DNA of 64,000 bases, taken from a phage. A program made the translations under genes and the position numbers. The stretch is taken from assembly GCA_033580375.1 (NCBI GenBank), contig GCA_033580375.1_4527.1; one strand, written 5' to 3'. Below the pieces are notes generated by a model. That model had not been told where the DNA came from and made no database searches. It saw nothing but the letters and a program-made list of their open reading frames with translations. This document shows positions 7,380 to 61,918 of this stretch, piece after piece (the stretch's first letter is position 1; each line of letters opens with the position of its first letter).

Positions 7380-7693
7380 ATTTCCTCGCAAAATGCCCAT
7401 TCAGCGTGATAAACTGTAGCACCTTTAGTATCATTCATTTGAACTACATCTACCGGAGAAATTACTCGATAGAGACGTGGTTCACCTCCATAAGAGCGTG
7501 CTGCTCGTCCTGCATAAATCTTTGCTAAACCGATATCTTCAGTAAAGAATACACGATCCAAGTTTTTCTTACGTCCGGTTTCAGACAGAACTCCTGTTTC
7601 TTCAGGAGGACAAAGCATGTTTTCGATGTTAGCTGAACTACTTGAACCGTGATAAAAAATCTTAAATTCTGCTTTACAATCAATGGTTTTCAT
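7376..7693 (-). CDS. hypothetical protein
   Basis: 105-aa ORF with SD GGAGAA. Confidence 0.45.
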   Translation of the reverse strand: MKTIDCKAEFKIFYHGSSSSANIENMLCPPEETGVLSETGRKKNLDRVFFTEDIGLAKIYAGRAARSYGGEPRLYRVISPVDVVQMNDTKGATVYHAEWAFCEEI

Positions 7694-7699
7694 TTTGTT

Positions 7700-7748
7700 C
7701 TCCAGTAGTTGATATGTCTATAATAACACAACTACTGGAGAAGTAAAC
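7700..7748 (-). promoter_or_regulatory. early promoter embedded in 12-bp inverted repeat that can sequester the downstream SD
   Basis: minus GTTTAC-tt-CTCCAGTAGTTG-[loop with TGTTATTAT]-CAACTACTGGAG-aacaaa-ATG; 3' arm contains GGAG of the SD. Confidence 0.6.
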
Positions 7749-47690: not shown

Positions 47691-48149
47691 CTAGATTTTA
47701 ATAACTGCTTTAGAAGCTTTTCCTGGTAGTCGTTTACTGTTAATAATAGCCATTCTACATTGAAGAGTCTTCATTTTGAATGCCGGATTTTCGCGACAAA
47801 CTGTAAGGCCTAGCCAAAGATTTCCATCAGTTATTTCTAAACGGCCTGGGCGGTATTCGACACCTTCGACAAAATCTTCATCAACATCTGGACGTGCCGG
47901 CATTGATAAAAATTCTGCAACTTCTTTAACGTGATTTTTTACTTTACGAAATAATTCAAAAACGTAATTCTCATCTATTTCTCTCTGGATGGCACGATCT
48001 AAGAGATGTTGAGAATACTTGATATGAAAGCCTGGTAGTCCAAGAGACTTTGCAGCATCTTTTATACCGGCATTTATTTTGCGGAACTCCGTTTCAAAGA
48101 TTCGACGGAGTTTATTACGGCGGATAAAAACTTCCGAATTGATAGTCAT
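47691..48149 (-). CDS. regB: endoribonuclease RegB
   Basis: MTIN.EVFIRRNKLRR.FE.EFR.IN...YSQHLLDRAIQREIDE.YVFELF...PGRLEITDGNLWLG.TVC...LQCRMAIINS.RLPGKASKAVIK matches T4 RegB. Confidence 0.9.
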   Translation of the reverse strand: MTINSEVFIRRNKLRRIFETEFRKINAGIKDAAKSLGLPGFHIKYSQHLLDRAIQREIDENYVFELFRKVKNHVKEVAEFLSMPARPDVDEDFVEGVEYRPGRLEITDGNLWLGLTVCRENPAFKMKTLQCRMAIINSKRLPGKASKAVIKI

Positions 48150-48157
48150 TTTGATTT

Positions 48158-48206
48158 CTCCTCTAGTTGACAGGTCTATAGTAACACAACTAGAGGAGAA
48201 GTAAAC
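48158..48206 (-). promoter_or_regulatory. early promoter embedded in 12-bp inverted repeat sequestering regB SD
   Basis: minus GTTTACtt-CTCCTCTAGTTG-[loop TGTTACTATAGACCTG]-CAACTAGAGGAG-aaatcaaa-ATG. Confidence 0.6.
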
Positions 48207-48692: not shown

Positions 48693-48906
48693 AAGGAATT
48701 TCCTCATCGGTGGCAAGGTCATATTCGACCAATTGGATAGGCTCATTAATACCATATCCACGTACAGTGATATCAGTTGTCGGATAGTTTCCAGTAATAT
48801 CACCCATTCTAAATGCTTCAATGAATGATTGCTCGCCTGAGCAACTAAACCAGGCGGCAAAACATTTTAAAACATCTTCAGACCCTTCTATAATCAATTT
48901 AGCCAT
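48682..48906 (-). CDS. hypothetical protein
   Basis: 74-aa ORF starting right at the GrcA-like stop. Confidence 0.4.
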   Translation of the reverse strand: MAKLIIEGSEDVLKCFAAWFSCSGEQSFIEAFRMGDITGNYPTTDITVRGYGINEPIQLVEYDLATDEEIPYVD

Positions 48907-49268
48907 TATAGACTCTCAGTAAAGGTACGAGCGATAACGTCGCGCTGCTGTTCTGGAGTCAGAGAGTTAAAGCGAACTGCATAACCGGATACACGAATGG
49001 TCAGCTGAGGATATTTTTCCGGATGCTTAACTGCATCTTCCAGAGTTTCACGACGCAGAACGTTAACGTTCAGATGTTGACCACCTTCAATTTTAACTTT
49101 AGGTTGATGTTCAATTTCAATTTCACGGGCATTCAAACCGTAGAAAATTTCAGGGTCTACAATAGCGTCTTCTTTAAAAGTCTTAGAGACAATAATCCGG
49201 GCTTGAGTACCGTCTTCAAAATAAATAGTGCCTTTATGTGCACCTTCAAGAATTTGATATGCTTTCAT
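48906..49268 (-). CDS. autonomous glycyl-radical cofactor, GrcA (YfiD)-like
   Basis: 120 aa; C-terminal [58 protein letters not shown] matches the E. coli GrcA C-terminus as recalled, including the RVSGY glycyl-radical motif. Confidence 0.85.
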
Positions 49269-49274
49269 ATAACC

Positions 49275-49583
49275 TCAATTAGAAAATAAATTTATCCAAG
49301 TTTTTTCTTTAATCAAAAATGGGTCGGAATTAAACGCCATTAAACTTTGAGTGATTAATCCCTTAAATGGCCCATCAATAAATTCCATTTTGAAATGCGG
49401 AATACTAGTCATCAACCGTGCATTAGGAGCAGTACAAAGAACCTGCTGACCTGCGAATGGACCTTTAGTCAAACGATATCGTTTAGGTTTAAAATGGTAG
49501 ATCTCGTAATTTTCTACAAGAGCCCTTTTATTGCATACTGGGCTATTATAACAATATTCAAAAACTTCAATAGTGGTCATCAT
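49275..49583 (-). CDS. hypothetical protein (start uncertain)
   Basis: ORF 49275..49646 trimmed to internal Met to avoid overlap. Confidence 0.4.
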   Translation of the reverse strand: MMTTIEVFEYCYNSPVCNKRALVENYEIYHFKPKRYRLTKGPFAGQQVLCTAPNARLMTSIPHFKMEFIDGPFKGLITQSLMAFNSDPFLIKEKTWINLFSN

Positions 49584-50119
49584 TGCATTCCAATCACAAA
49601 AAATTGAGGACGAGCAATACCGCCGATGCAATATTTGCTTTTGCAACAGTGTTGGACTGTTTTAATATGTATGTTATAAATCTTATCCATATCAGGAGCT
49701 TTAATAGGCTCGTCAATTATATACAGAATACGAGAAAGCGTTAATCCACGGAATTTAGAACCTTCGTTGCCAATAAAACTACGGACAGAATCAGTAAATA
49801 AACGGAATCGAATATCGTCGCTAGAATAACGAGAAAATTCTTTTTTAATGTTGCCAGCAGAAATTTTAGAATAAGCTGAAGTATTAGAAAGAATAATAAC
49901 TGTTCCACCATCATACAGCCAATTAACAGCAAAATTAGTTACTGCGGTCGATTTACCTGATTGTCTGCCGCCGTCTAAACGAAGTGTACAGTACTGCTTG
50001 AGTACGTCTTCAAATGGTGGGGCATAACCGTTCTTACAAATTTCTTCTACTCTAGCATCAGAATGGTGTGTAAAAGCATTCATCAGGGATAGATAAGGTC
50101 CAGTTAAAAATGTTCTCAT
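49580..50119 (-). CDS. small P-loop ATPase (start uncertain)
   Basis: Walker A GGRQSGKST and Walker B ILYIIDEP; ATG at 50119 chosen, ORF could extend to 50233. Confidence 0.45.
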   Translation of the reverse strand: MRTFLTGPYLSLMNAFTHHSDARVEEICKNGYAPPFEDVLKQYCTLRLDGGRQSGKSTAVTNFAVNWLYDGGTVIILSNTSAYSKISAGNIKKEFSRYSSDDIRFRLFTDSVRSFIGNEGSKFRGLTLSRILYIIDEPIKAPDMDKIYNIHIKTVQHCCKSKYCIGGIARPQFFVIGMQ

Positions 50120-50282
50120 ATTATTTCTCTTAAGGTTGGGGGCCATTCCATGGCGCATGAATTGTCCATTTCTGTATTTACCCATTACCGCACTTGGGCT
50201 CGACCTTATTACAGGTTGGCGGGAATCCCTCATAGAATCATGAGGTCCAGGTTGTTCCCATTTTATTTGAATGTAAATATTT

Positions 50283-50328
50283 TTGCCACGTGTTTACGAA
50301 TTATACCAAAAAAAAAACACGTGGCAAT
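50283..50328 (-). promoter_or_regulatory. sigma70-like promoter (TTGCCA-16-TGgTATAAT) inside a perfect 12-bp inverted repeat
   Basis: plus ttgccacgtgtt...aacacgtggcaa; minus strand reads TTGCCAcgtg-T10-gg-TATAAT. Confidence 0.45.
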
Positions 50329-50452
50329 TCACAGTATTCGGCGATTAAATGTTGATCAGCAAATTTAGATACTAAAGTCAAATTAATATAAGTCATTTAC
50401 CCATCCAAGTAATTATGAATATACTATCACAATTCTAGGAGAAAGTAAACTG

Positions 50453-50755
50453 TTATTTACCTTTAATTACTTTAGCTGCTTCGATAGCCGCTTGCTGAAG
50501 GTCATCCATAGACATACCGAATTTAGAAGCAAAGTTATCAATTTTCTTTTCGACAGCATTCAAAGGCTTGGCCTGTTTACCTTCATTAGCGCCAGGAAGA
50601 GCGAGAATACGCTCTTTGTCAATATAAAGGCTTACAAGTTTCTTACGGTCTTTATCGGACAAATCATGAAATGAATGGGCCTTTTTATTTATAGCGGCTT
50701 CTAATTTACCTGCACTCACTCGAGCTTCAGTAATAAATTCTTGATATGTTTTCAT
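50453..50755 (-). CDS. ipII: internal protein IPII-like (capsid-targeting N-terminus)
   Basis: 100 aa; N-terminal MKTYQEFITEA matches the T4 internal-protein targeting sequence cleaved by the prohead protease. Confidence 0.65.
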   Translation of the reverse strand: MKTYQEFITEARVSAGKLEAAINKKAHSFHDLSDKDRKKLVSLYIDKERILALPGANEGKQAKPLNAVEKKIDNFASKFGMSMDDLQQAAIEAAKVIKGK

Positions 50756-50796
50756 ATGTTTCCTTTAAATGTAAATAGGCCTATACTTAGACCTTA

Positions 50797-51375
50797 TTAA
50801 TTACCACGGGCTGCATTAGCAACGGCGTAAGCGTACTGAACATTAGCGTCTTTAAACGTACCTTTAGATGTATCTATTTCTGCCTTAAAGCCACCTTTAG
50901 CCATAACATCGGCAAATTCTTTACGGAAAGCCATTGCATCAAGACCTTTCCATGATGATTTATGCTTGGCAAATTCAAGACCAGCGTAGTTGACAGCTTT
51001 AGCTAATTTATTATCAATAACCCATTTACCGGCTTTAGGCACAAACTTCGGGCCTTTTTGTTTAGAGAACAGTTTTAAATTCCAGCGACGAAGGTCACTG
51101 TCGGCTTTAACAAAAGCTGCGTCTAAGTTACTAGCAACAACATCTTCAATATGAGCAAATTTAAGTCCGTCAACTTCAATATTTAGATCGTTACGCCAGC
51201 GTAGTCCTTCCCAAGCGAAGGCTTTAAAATCAGAAGCCTTTGTAGCTAAGTACCGTTCAATAGGAGCTGTTTTAGGGTCAAAGCCGTTTCCGCCACGATA
51301 AGTCCACTCGTCCTTATTAATGCCTTGAGCTTTTCCTGCAAAGGCCTCGGCGATAAATTCTTTATACGTTTTCAT
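50797..51375 (-). CDS. ipIII: internal protein IPIII-like
   Basis: 192 aa; N-terminal MKTYKEFIAEA. Confidence 0.65.
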   Translation of the reverse strand: MKTYKEFIAEAFAGKAQGINKDEWTYRGGNGFDPKTAPIERYLATKASDFKAFAWEGLRWRNDLNIEVDGLKFAHIEDVVASNLDAAFVKADSDLRRWNLKLFSKQKGPKFVPKAGKWVIDNKLAKAVNYAGLEFAKHKSSWKGLDAMAFRKEFADVMAKGGFKAEIDTSKGTFKDANVQYAYAVANAARGN

Positions 51376-51438
51376 TTTTGTTTCCTTGTTTGTTTTGATA
51401 GAGTAATTATACCATATTAATACTTAAGCGTAAACAAT

Positions 51439-51699
51439 TTAAGCTTTACCGCCAGAAATAATTCCGAAGTTGTTAAAATCGTATCCAATATCGTCAGCAT
51501 CTACTTTAGGACTTGCTACAACATAAGCAATTTCACTACGTTTTGCATAGGTGTTGATTTCTTTACCATCGCCACCTAAGAAAGAATACCCATTACGTTT
51601 TAATGAGCCAAAGTCTTCCGCATCACCAATGAAAGCTTTAACTTTAAATTTGGGGTCTTTGGCATCCGCTTCAGTGATAAATTCTTGATACATTTTCAT
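51439..51699 (-). CDS. internal-protein-like (CTS-bearing) small protein
   Basis: 86 aa; N-terminal MKMYQEFITEA. Confidence 0.55.
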   Translation of the reverse strand: MKMYQEFITEADAKDPKFKVKAFIGDAEDFGSLKRNGYSFLGGDGKEINTYAKRSEIAYVVASPKVDADDIGYDFNNFGIISGGKA

Positions 51700-51705
51700 T
51701 TTTCC

Positions 51706-52119
51706 TTAGTAAATTGATTTACCATAGTATTTGTACCAAGTGGGACGTTGAGCAATTTTTTCATCTAAGCGTGCTTGACTTATCGCAATGGACGCTTCGG
51801 ACGGGACATAATTATTACGAAATTCTACAGGAATGTCGGAAATATCCTGGACTGTCGTGTCCTTGATTTTGAAACCACGTTTCAAACATTCAGCTATTAG
51901 CTCGATTTGACGTAAACGTAAAAATTCGAGTTTGTCGTAAAAGAATGTTACGTGGCCCGTGCCTAAAATAAATGTTGGAGAGATTTTAAAATCTTTTACA
52001 CGTTTACCATTTTGAACATGTTTACGGACTGCACCGAATACACGAGGTAATTCACGATACTCAGCCATAAGATGTTGGTCGGTCAGTTCAGAAACAAGTG
52101 TTAAATTGATACGGGTCAT
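51706..52119 (-). CDS. denV: endonuclease V (pyrimidine-dimer DNA glycosylase) DenV
   Basis: [91 protein letters not shown] near-identical to T4 DenV. Confidence 0.9.
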
Positions 52120-52177
52120 AATTTCCTCCAAGTAGTTGATAGATGTATAGTATCAAAACCCTTGGAGGAAGTAAACA
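52120..52177 (-). promoter_or_regulatory. early promoter with inverted repeat (cctccaag / cttggagg)
   Basis: minus GTTTACttCCTCCAAGggttttgatactatacatctatcaactaCTTGGAGG. Confidence 0.45.
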
Positions 52178-61761: not shown

Positions 61762-61838
<77 letters not shown>

Positions 61839-61844
61839 AATATA

Positions 61845-61918
61845 TGACCCAGACCAGATTCGAACTGGTAACCTTTCCCTTATGAGGGGACTGCTACTAA
61901 CCGTTGAGCTACAGGGCC
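61845..61918 (-). tRNA. tRNA with CAU anticodon (Met or Ile2)
   Basis: hand-folded: T-arm ACCAG-TTCGAAT-CTGGT, anticodon loop CTCATAA, acceptor GGCCCTG/CTGGGTC with one mismatch; no encoded CCA. Confidence 0.55.

Follow-up and report, generated by a model that had tools for sequence, protein, structure and literature searches.

An RNA of about 120 nt, predicted here from the comparison of related phages, is found in over 1,000 sequenced genomes of coliphages from unrelated families and is absent from bacterial genomes and RNA databases. We describe it in a 64,000-nt stretch of phage DNA (contig GCA_033580375.1_4527.1 of GenBank assembly GCA_033580375.1; hereafter the window, meaning the whole stretch analysed), which comes from a T4-like phage whose nearest relative is Mosigvirus JS09 (98.5% identity over the region). 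On the minus strand the RNA lies between the remains of a second denV gene and the homologue of vs.8, which encodes a P-loop protein. An earlier note, made from the letters of the window alone, had described this region as a GC-rich structured leader with a sigma-70-like promoter inside a 12-bp palindrome, and had offered a host-derived fragment, a regulatory leader for the P-loop gene or a small RNA as explanations. That interpretation is partly supported, having joined two unrelated things, a dead denV and a conserved RNA; among its explanations the small RNA is the best supported, through covariation and a pseudoknotted, autonomous architecture. On the searches reported below, the family is new, absent from Rfam, widespread and strongly constrained. 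The predicted features of the RNA in the window are as follows.

50138–50259, minus strand: whole structured RNA domain of T4 type ('type A'), about 122 nt, with a 5′ hairpin domain, three-way-junction core, pseudoknot and 3′ domain
50221–50259, minus strand: 5′ domain, in which helix Ha, GGGAA (50259–50255) with UUCCC (50225–50221), encloses the internal loop CAACCUGGA and a hairpin
50245–50240 with 50233–50228, minus strand: 5′-domain hairpin CCUCAU/AUGAGG
50181–50219, minus strand: three-way-junction core, made of P1, P2, junction CGA, P3 and junction GGUAA (50189–50185)
50219–50217 with 50184 and 50182–50181, minus strand: P1, in which CCA pairs with U (50184) and GG (50182–50181), G50183 being bulged
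50216–50203, minus strand: P2, ACCU[GUAAUA]AGGU
50199–50190, minus strand: P3, GC[CCAAGU]GC
50172–50250, minus strand: pseudoknot Hb, CUG (50250–50248) in the 5′-domain internal loop with CAG (50174–50172) in the tail just 3′ of P1
50142–50154, minus strand: 3′ hairpin GCC-AUGGAAU-GGC with GGA in the loop, specific to T4-like versions

Conservation and non-coding nature of the element

The GC richness that the earlier note had seen is far beyond chance. GC content across 50138–50259 is 50.8%, against a mean of 36.9% for the window (standard deviation 4.5% in segments of 122 nt), and 0.27% of such segments reach 50.8%. From GGGAAC at 50259 to GGCCC at 50138, 4 of the 122 positions differ between the window and T4 (approximately 97% identity), whereas the adjoining denV codons upstream differ far more between the same two phages. 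Moreover, the spacers on either side of the element bear indels of 7 nt and 2 nt that alter the reading frame, the former at the denV end in T4 and the latter in the spacer to the vs.8 ATG, where the window differs from Tequatrovirus Killian. Within the element itself, two near-identical relatives (L018 and L020, the latter being RB69) are separated by a 1-nt indel in the P3 loop, and therefore no reading frame is conserved on either strand.

Current annotations of this stretch are inconsistent, because a single open frame runs through the RNA in type-A phages. In T4 the element is annotated as the N-terminus of Vs.8, adding about 38–39 codons to give 219 aa (L003 2254–2913), with vs.8 homologues in other phages annotated at 168–184 aa. 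Killian has it as a C-terminal extension of DenV, giving 183 aa (L002 2566–3117), and JS09 has a 'DenV' stub here (L001 2557–2694). The open frame and the annotated lengths in T4 and Killian would favour an explanation without any RNA, namely a coding extension of Vs.8 or DenV, or else a site acting at the level of DNA. Against a coding extension stand the 2-nt and 7-nt differences, through which the frame links are not conserved, and the indel inside the core. Moreover, the profile of the vs.8 family starts only at the ATG downstream and leaves the annotated T4 extension out: phrog_1488 matches residues 3–179 of the 179-aa form (E = 7e-78), and therefore the 38-codon upstream extension lies outside the vs.8 protein family. 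G-U pairs are found on the gene-sense strand only (from UG and GU counts), which points to an RNA from that strand rather than a DNA site, and the compensatory changes described below likewise speak against an explanation of this kind. We regard an explanation without RNA as almost certainly wrong, and the element as very probably a real structured non-coding RNA. It was overlooked in T4, the most thoroughly studied of phages and a model organism for more than 70 years, because annotators took the stretch as the Vs.8 N-terminus. The annotations of vs.8 in T4 and of denV in phages of Killian type both need correction.

Secondary structure and covariation

Comparison of relatives supports the three-way junction and the pseudoknot through compensatory changes. 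For type A (13 sequences) 98.9% of cells are paired, with two compensatory changes and two wobbles: in Ha an A-U pair becomes G-C, and in the 5′ hairpin a C-G pair becomes U-A and two U-G wobbles occur. This hairpin is the cctcat-agaatc-atgagg of the earlier note (plus-strand 50228–50245), and its pairing is kept in relatives through just these changes. On 21 T4-like sequences of type B, 98.5% of a 35-pair model is paired; compensatory changes occur in Ha, at the base of the long 5′ hairpin, in P1 and in pseudoknot Hb. Ha of type B (AAAGG/CCUUU) shows G-C, C-G and A-U pairs, and Hb, which is 100% paired, covaries as CCG/CGG, CAC/GUG and CGC/GCG.

Across the family the core has a P2 loop GUAAYA, a P3 of the form GC[5–6 nt]GC and a bulged G after the first 3′ pair of P1. 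The inner three pairs of P1 are 100% paired in 37 distinct sequences and occur in 5, 5 and 2 pair types. Among these related sequences P1 has a covariation score of 0.282, against 0.074 when shuffled (0 of 500 shuffles reach it) and 0.02–0.07 with the partners slid. Core members were gathered by a sequence-pattern search, and P2 and P3 were unable to vary in the 37-sequence set. In Karamvirus-like contigs a second tandem copy has P2 as GCCU/AGGC and P3 as GUC/GAC or GCC/GGC (L041 and L044), and is thus covarying. The covariance model scores 71.5 bits at the element, its sole match in the window. The tandem copies lie between denV and vs.8 (L041 5087–5256, L044 9015–9185 and L095 357–527), the second copy having junction CA in place of CGA.

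By eye, the 5′ hairpin loop of every other subfamily is able to pair with the tail after P1, as CCUG/CAGG in PG7, CCAG/CUGG in magaca, GAGG/CCUC in L055, CGGA/UCCG in L023, CUCCGG/CCGGAG in Ivi and AAACCA/UGGUUU in L038. An outer closing helix is present in Ivi and L023, and the minimum-energy fold also gives it for Ivi and the 46-kb type. In the 3′ hairpin of T4-like versions three G-C pairs are invariant, and a fourth pair is absent in some sequences. Two loci (L035 and L056) have a 33-nt insertion (GGCAAGGAGCCCAATTCGATTCTAGGAAGGAAA) within the 3′ domain, as is to be expected of a variable peripheral element. Single-sequence thermodynamic folding gives z = 0.17 and −0.17 for the two strands and is uninformative; the fold is visible because relatives were compared.

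Distribution and genomic context

A blastn search with a 138-nt element retrieved 1,114 phage records. Carriers are Tequatrovirus, Mosigvirus, Karamvirus, T4-like phages of Klebsiella, Vequintavirus, KpCHEMY26 (70 kb) and Ivi (45 kb), the T4-like carriers infecting Escherichia, Shigella, Klebsiella, Enterobacter, Salmonella, Yersinia and Citrobacter. A core of roughly 45 nt (ACCTGTAAYAAGGTCGAGCC.AAGTGCGGTAA) is matched at 86–95% in Vequintavirus (about 136 kb), and a 32-nt stretch of it is found in Karamvirus PG7 (94%), Kosakonia phage Kc304 (97%) and Ivi (94%). Pattern scans add 35 metagenome contigs and viral contigs of 46–96 kb, the 46-kb type corresponding to Klebsiella phage KpCHEMY26. 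All core matches in unrelated phages are intergenic, and none of the records carries an RNA annotation there. The host-derived fragment of the earlier note found no counterpart: there is no blastn match to the element in 5,426 E. coli genomes, and two core patterns have zero matches in 185,579 bacterial and archaeal species genomes.

Two side observations concern the membership of the family. Records labelled 'Campylobacter phage' (135–141 kb) bear the Vequintavirus form of the element and are probably mislabelled coliphages. In two T4-like contigs of 165 kb and 235 kb (L051 2440–2580 and L052 169–330), AAGGTCGAGCGC..GCGGTAAGG stands directly before a tRNA cluster within a non-coding stretch of roughly 140 nt. 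The covariance model scores L052 only (18.5 bits) and P1 could not be drawn, and the stretch may be a distant relative of the RNA.

The surroundings of the RNA differ between phage groups, with no neighbouring protein common to them within 3.5 kb. In T4-like phages it stands directly before vs.8, 6–11 kb downstream of the tRNA cluster (6 kb in T4 itself), and ends 15–25 nt before the next gene's start codon; in Klebsiella phages a different small gene follows. Outside the T4-like group, tRNA genes are found on the same strand 0.2–0.75 kb away in 12 of 15 loci (about four lineages), the nearest often being tRNA-Arg(UCU). The RNA comes before or after the tRNA clusters in Vequintavirus and the 46–96-kb phages, and downstream of tRNAs in L025 and L038. 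L038 has an intrinsic terminator within 30 nt after the RNA, Ivi has the RNA between two terminator hairpins with no credible open reading frame (ORF), and Vequintavirus has a promoter-like site between the RNA and the next gene. The orientation of the RNA always agrees with the direction of transcription. Vequintavirus loci also carry a 17-nt motif, AGAGGGCTTGAWAGTGC, on both sides of the RNA (L004 about 2425–2450, L055 about 185–205), which may represent a promoter specific to the phage or the footprint of a recombination event.

These contexts bear on the leader that the earlier note had suggested for the P-loop gene, that is, a riboswitch or protein-binding operator in the 5′ untranslated region of vs.8 that controls translation or stability of the vs.8–regB early operon. 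Its position stands, given that in T4-like phages the RNA is always that close to the next start codon, with the 3′ domain near the ribosome-binding site. Moreover, invariant nucleotides at a pseudoknotted junction are a typical trait of aptamers, and tandem copies, as in the Karamvirus-like loci, are known from some riboswitches. However, the core is found elsewhere without vs.8. What lies downstream may be vs.8, the other small gene in Klebsiella phages, in Vequintavirus and the 46-kb group tRNAs or a gene with its own promoter, or the terminator of L038, and the groups share no protein partner. Neither the constant class of downstream gene nor the expression platform of a riboswitch was found; no alternative pairing that buries the vs.8 Shine-Dalgarno was found, and no terminator follows the RNA in T4-like phages. 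A cis-regulatory leader is thus, in our view, quite unlikely.

The position at boundaries between coding and tRNA segments, together with the constant orientation along transcription, would also suit a catalytic or processing RNA, such as a small self-cleaving ribozyme or a processing signal that separates mRNA from tRNA arrays or denV from vs.8. A core of about 45 nt with a three-way junction, a pseudoknot, about 15 invariant unpaired nucleotides and variable helices and loops resembles such ribozymes. However, no known class matches at E <= 10, no cleavage site can be inferred, and in Ivi and L038 the element looks less like a spacer than like what a small transcription unit of its own would produce. 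We consider this explanation improbable.

Proximity to tRNA genes raises a further alternative, a nascent-RNA antiterminator like the put RNA of phage HK022, which would bind the host transcription machinery and let RNA polymerase pass tRNA arrays and terminators. Untranslated arrays are exposed to Rho, in Vequintavirus and the 46-kb group the RNA precedes tRNA clusters that lie on its own strand, and strict conservation across unrelated phages fits a ligand of host machinery. However, it is downstream of the tRNAs in L025 and L038, in the latter with a terminator directly after it, and the distance to the tRNA cluster upstream in T4-like phages and the promoter-like site before the next gene in Vequintavirus do not agree with such a role. 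Moreover, the model finds nothing in HK022, a phage with put RNAs, its best score in that whole genome being 8.6 bits inside a tail gene. We therefore give the antiterminator very little credence.

Proposed role of the RNA

We lean towards an autonomous, trans-acting structured RNA that is neither a leader specific to vs.8 nor derived from the host. That it would be an independent module rather than a vs.8-specific leader seems to us likewise probable, because the neighbours vary, the RNA has terminators of its own in some phages and closing helices are present. The RNA would be transcribed within the early leftward message that runs from the denV promoter to vs.8; in the phage studied here, an accidental promoter created by a run of ten T residues may add transcripts, starting near 50293 and thus 34 nt before the RNA. 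It would fold independently of its neighbours, with the pseudoknot locking the junction, and act in trans, as a stable RNA that binds a ligand. The factor bound, whether protein or small molecule, would be one that enterobacterial hosts have in common, and the binding surface would comprise the invariant junction nucleotides and the P2 loop.

Such conserved, compact structured RNAs usually bind something specific or catalyse a reaction. The patchy, high-identity spread with no shared protein neighbour suggests an accessory or counter-defence role, or one linked to tRNAs and translation; taken with the linkage to tRNA clusters, it suggests a part in the contest over host translation or defence machinery. 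More speculatively, and with considerable doubt on our part, the RNA might be the founding member of a new functional class, a horizontally mobile phage aptamer or ribozyme without a dedicated protein. Within such a class it could, just as doubtfully, act as a sponge that takes up a host immune effector or a nucleotide second messenger, or be a new self-cleaving ribozyme.

Several points weigh against an autonomous, trans-acting RNA. In T4-like phages, which make up the large majority of members, the RNA is immediately upstream of vs.8, and the T4-like 3′ domain, with its GGA-loop hairpins, is lineage-specific; this adjacency and this domain fit a role in cis, at least in T4-like phages. The significance of the P1 shuffle test is overstated, as the sequences in it are related. 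The pattern-based collection makes the invariance of P2, P3 and the junctions partly an artefact and under-samples the variability of the core. Outside the T4-like group the pseudoknot was read by eye, and unrestricted duplex energies across families average −12.2 kcal/mol for cognate and −10.9 kcal/mol for non-cognate pairs in a test that is too noisy. A discrete RNA species is itself a prediction from sequence alone, and a role as decoy or sponge for a host factor, suggested by the distribution alone, is to be taken as a tentative possibility.

A dead copy of denV accounts for the palindrome and promoter-like site

Upstream of the RNA, on the alignment with intact denV, window positions 50261–50396 (minus strand) are a decayed duplicate of that gene, i.e. 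a pseudogene. The features concerned are as follows.

50301–50396, minus strand: 5′ remnant of denV, with ATG at 50396 and 28 DenV codons, then a stop after a frameshift within the T10 run
50261–50287, minus strand: 3′ remnant of denV, its last codons, directly after a deletion of about 290 bp
50283–50327: perfect 13-bp inverted repeat, TTGCCACGTGTTT / AAACACGTGGCAA on the minus strand, with arms at 50283–50295 and 50315–50327 and 19 nt between them
50300–50327, minus strand: sigma-70-like match TTGCCA-16-TGgTATAAT (11/12 positions, TG preceding TATAAT), inferred start near 50293

The 5′ remnant is identical to the N-terminus of T4 DenV at 23 of 28 residues (E = 6e-15), and its reading frame ends after 31 codons, the intact gene having about 138; homology to DenV (Pyr_excise, PF03013) is thus retained and an intact frame is not. 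The deletion junction falls at a GGCAAA microhomology (50282–50287). Alignment with the intact denV of Killian and T4, which both have it between ipII and vs.8, contains 292 gapped columns, and Tequatrovirus matches extend over 697 bp against 411 bp in the window. JS09, pEK20 and TU01 have short 'DenV' stubs annotated at the position of the remnant, those of JS09 type being 32–45 aa. The copy is redundant, since an intact denV lies at 51706–52131. We also considered whether the whole leader is a denV remnant, and rejected this for the GC-rich part: T4 has the same element after the stop of its intact denV.

Both signals that the earlier note had placed at the promoter are present as letters, the inverted repeat being 13 nt rather than 12 and its arms 100% complementary. 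The window contains 9 comparable inverted repeats, this one included, and 2 perfect ones of at least 12 nt; therefore it is not exceptional. Its arms are the denV codons for ELPRVF and KHVA, and the −35 hexamer is a Leu-Pro codon pair. The repeat is already perfect in the intact denV of Killian, imperfect in T4, and AV110 and TU01 have mismatches in it. The repeat is no terminator, as neither strand has a U-run after it (the minus strand continues with AAAAAU, the plus strand with TTCACAG) and the terminator scan lists none there.

The promoter-like site has both hexamers and a spacer within 16–18 nt, and neither conservation in relatives nor an excess over chance. Matches of at least 11/12 number 3 in the whole window, against 3.2 expected from Markov-shuffled sequence; with TG required, the same scan finds 1 against 0.2 expected. 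Taken alone, the site is compatible with chance. The −10 hexamer derives from GGT ATA (A/G)TT, and TU01 carries TATAGT in place of TATAAT. Only this genome has the 16-nt spacer, because a T5 run has expanded to T10; JS09 and TU01 have T5, AV110 and pEK20 have T6, and in these four closest relatives the spacer is 11–12 nt.

If the unit of the earlier note is taken as it stands, the palindrome would be an operator around a genuine promoter that drives the structured leader together with the P-loop gene. Early promoters of T4 type depend on host sigma-70, the hexamers, spacing and TG are near consensus in this genome, and a transcript that starts near 50293 would carry the RNA at its 5′ end. However, the spacing in the four relatives, the imperfect repeat in two of them, the origin of the sequence in denV codons that are already present in intact genes, and a match frequency equal to chance all speak against such a unit, and hundreds of phages keep the RNA without the promoter. 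We find the operator scarcely credible. On these comparisons the palindrome and promoter are accidental by-products of denV codons and not a conserved regulatory unit, and a 'promoter in a palindrome' is not to be read here as a regulatory element. The T10 promoter may nevertheless well fire in this phage.

Setting of the locus

Two neighbouring genes frame the region studied.

49580–50119, minus strand: vs.8 homologue, P-loop protein of 179 aa, the gene downstream of the RNA
51706–52131, minus strand: intact denV (Pfam Pyr_excise, E = 3.6e-14)

Gene order on the minus strand is ipII (50755–50453), the region studied, the vs.8 homologue (50119–49580), vs.7 and vs.6, and onward to regB. The earlier note had its region begin at 50120; this boundary holds to within one position, the vs.8 homologue beginning at 50119. 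Pfam gives AAA and terminase-N matches to the vs.8 product, both weak.

Intact denV is 1.4 kb upstream of the remnant, and the arrangement in JS09 is identical. RB69, also a Mosigvirus, has two different small ORFs (ORF124c and ORF123c) and a type-B RNA at the corresponding position. The genomes are therefore mosaic here: against RB69, ipII, the denV remnant and an RNA of type A are found in this genome and in JS09 (window 50453–52131), with intact denV upstream in all three. It looks as if the ipII–denV–RNA block was imported from a Tequatrovirus and the redundant denV then decayed.

Further along the window, the vs.6 homologue (48906–49268) is a GrcA-like glycyl-radical cofactor (Pfam Gly_radical, E = 2e-18). 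Near-identical hairpins at 48151–48205 and 7693–7747 have 19-nt arms (89% complementary) and 17-nt loops with a GAGGAG Shine-Dalgarno buried in them, the former directly preceding the regB-like ORF (47691–48149). These look like the T4-type structures that sequester the ribosome-binding site.

Comparison with known systems

The covariance-model scan against Rfam placed the element in no known family. At the gathering threshold Rfam 15 (4,227 models) finds two tRNAs at 61.8 kb only in the window; at E <= 10, matches in 49900–50500 are chance ones of 19 bits or less, and at E <= 0.5 eight diverse members give only tRNA-related matches elsewhere in their loci. The element is no tRNA or tmRNA by ARAGORN, which gives tRNA-Arg and tRNA-Met alone (61762–61918). 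Models of hammerhead, twister, twister-sister, pistol, hatchet and HDV ribozymes have no match to the element even at E <= 10. No description of the element was found in the published literature, and it may be among the 10,006 candidate viral RNAs of a large catalogue (PMC10690425).

Some resemblance is seen to the GTPase-associated centre of 23S rRNA. The P2 hexaloop GUAAUA (GUAACA in some members) is, on what we take to be the E. coli sequence, that of the helix 44 loop (1093–1098), and the GC-[6 nt]-GC of P3 is presumably like the tip of helix 43, both hairpins leaving a three-way junction. However, the order of the hairpins is swapped, the P3 loop is freely variable whereas the A1067 loop is invariant, and BLAST against E. 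coli genomes found nothing similar; the two may share a recurrent loop motif and nothing more. We also considered a mimic of the tRNA-Tyr or tRNA-His anticodon loop (CUGUA, P2 loop), a mimic of the 16S 3′ end (GUAACAAGGU) and CsrA binding at the GGA loops; none was supported and none is claimed.

In architecture the closest parallels are the THF-I riboswitch aptamer and the exonuclease-resistant RNAs of flaviviruses. In these, as in the new RNA, a hairpin loop forms a pseudoknot with a flanking strand and so locks a three-way junction, whose nucleotides are conserved while the helices vary. The new RNA differs from both in having no Rfam match, other junction sequences and neither a constant downstream gene nor an expression platform; to our knowledge E. 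coli has no 5′-to-3′ exonuclease for an exonuclease-resistant RNA to block.

In function, an analogy may be drawn with the RNA decoys that phages use against host immunity, such as pseudo-ToxI antitoxin repeats and RNA anti-CRISPRs, which are solitary repeats. These are short, trans-acting, found in accessory regions and spread horizontally among unrelated phages, and the analogy is functional only. Decoys copy a host RNA, whereas the new RNA has no host copy in the E. coli and the 185,579 species genomes searched, and unlike decoy repeats it is not repetitive, save for the two tandem copies in Karamvirus-like loci.

Within T4 itself, a 2010 review (Uzan & Miller, PMC3014915) lists no characterised riboswitch or trans-acting RNA and gives the roles of the species 1 and 2 RNAs (rnaC and rnaD) as unknown. 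The new RNA has no sequence or structure similarity to rnaC and rnaD, with no tRNA-like 3′ half or CCA end, and the covariance model, run with filters off, scores below 10 bits across the tRNA/rnaC/rnaD region (L064). In T4 it is found 6 kb away from that region, between denV and vs.8. Nevertheless, rnaC and rnaD are likewise small structured phage RNAs, transcribed with tRNA genes on the same strand, and the new RNA, like them, adjoins tRNA clusters in phages outside the T4-like group.

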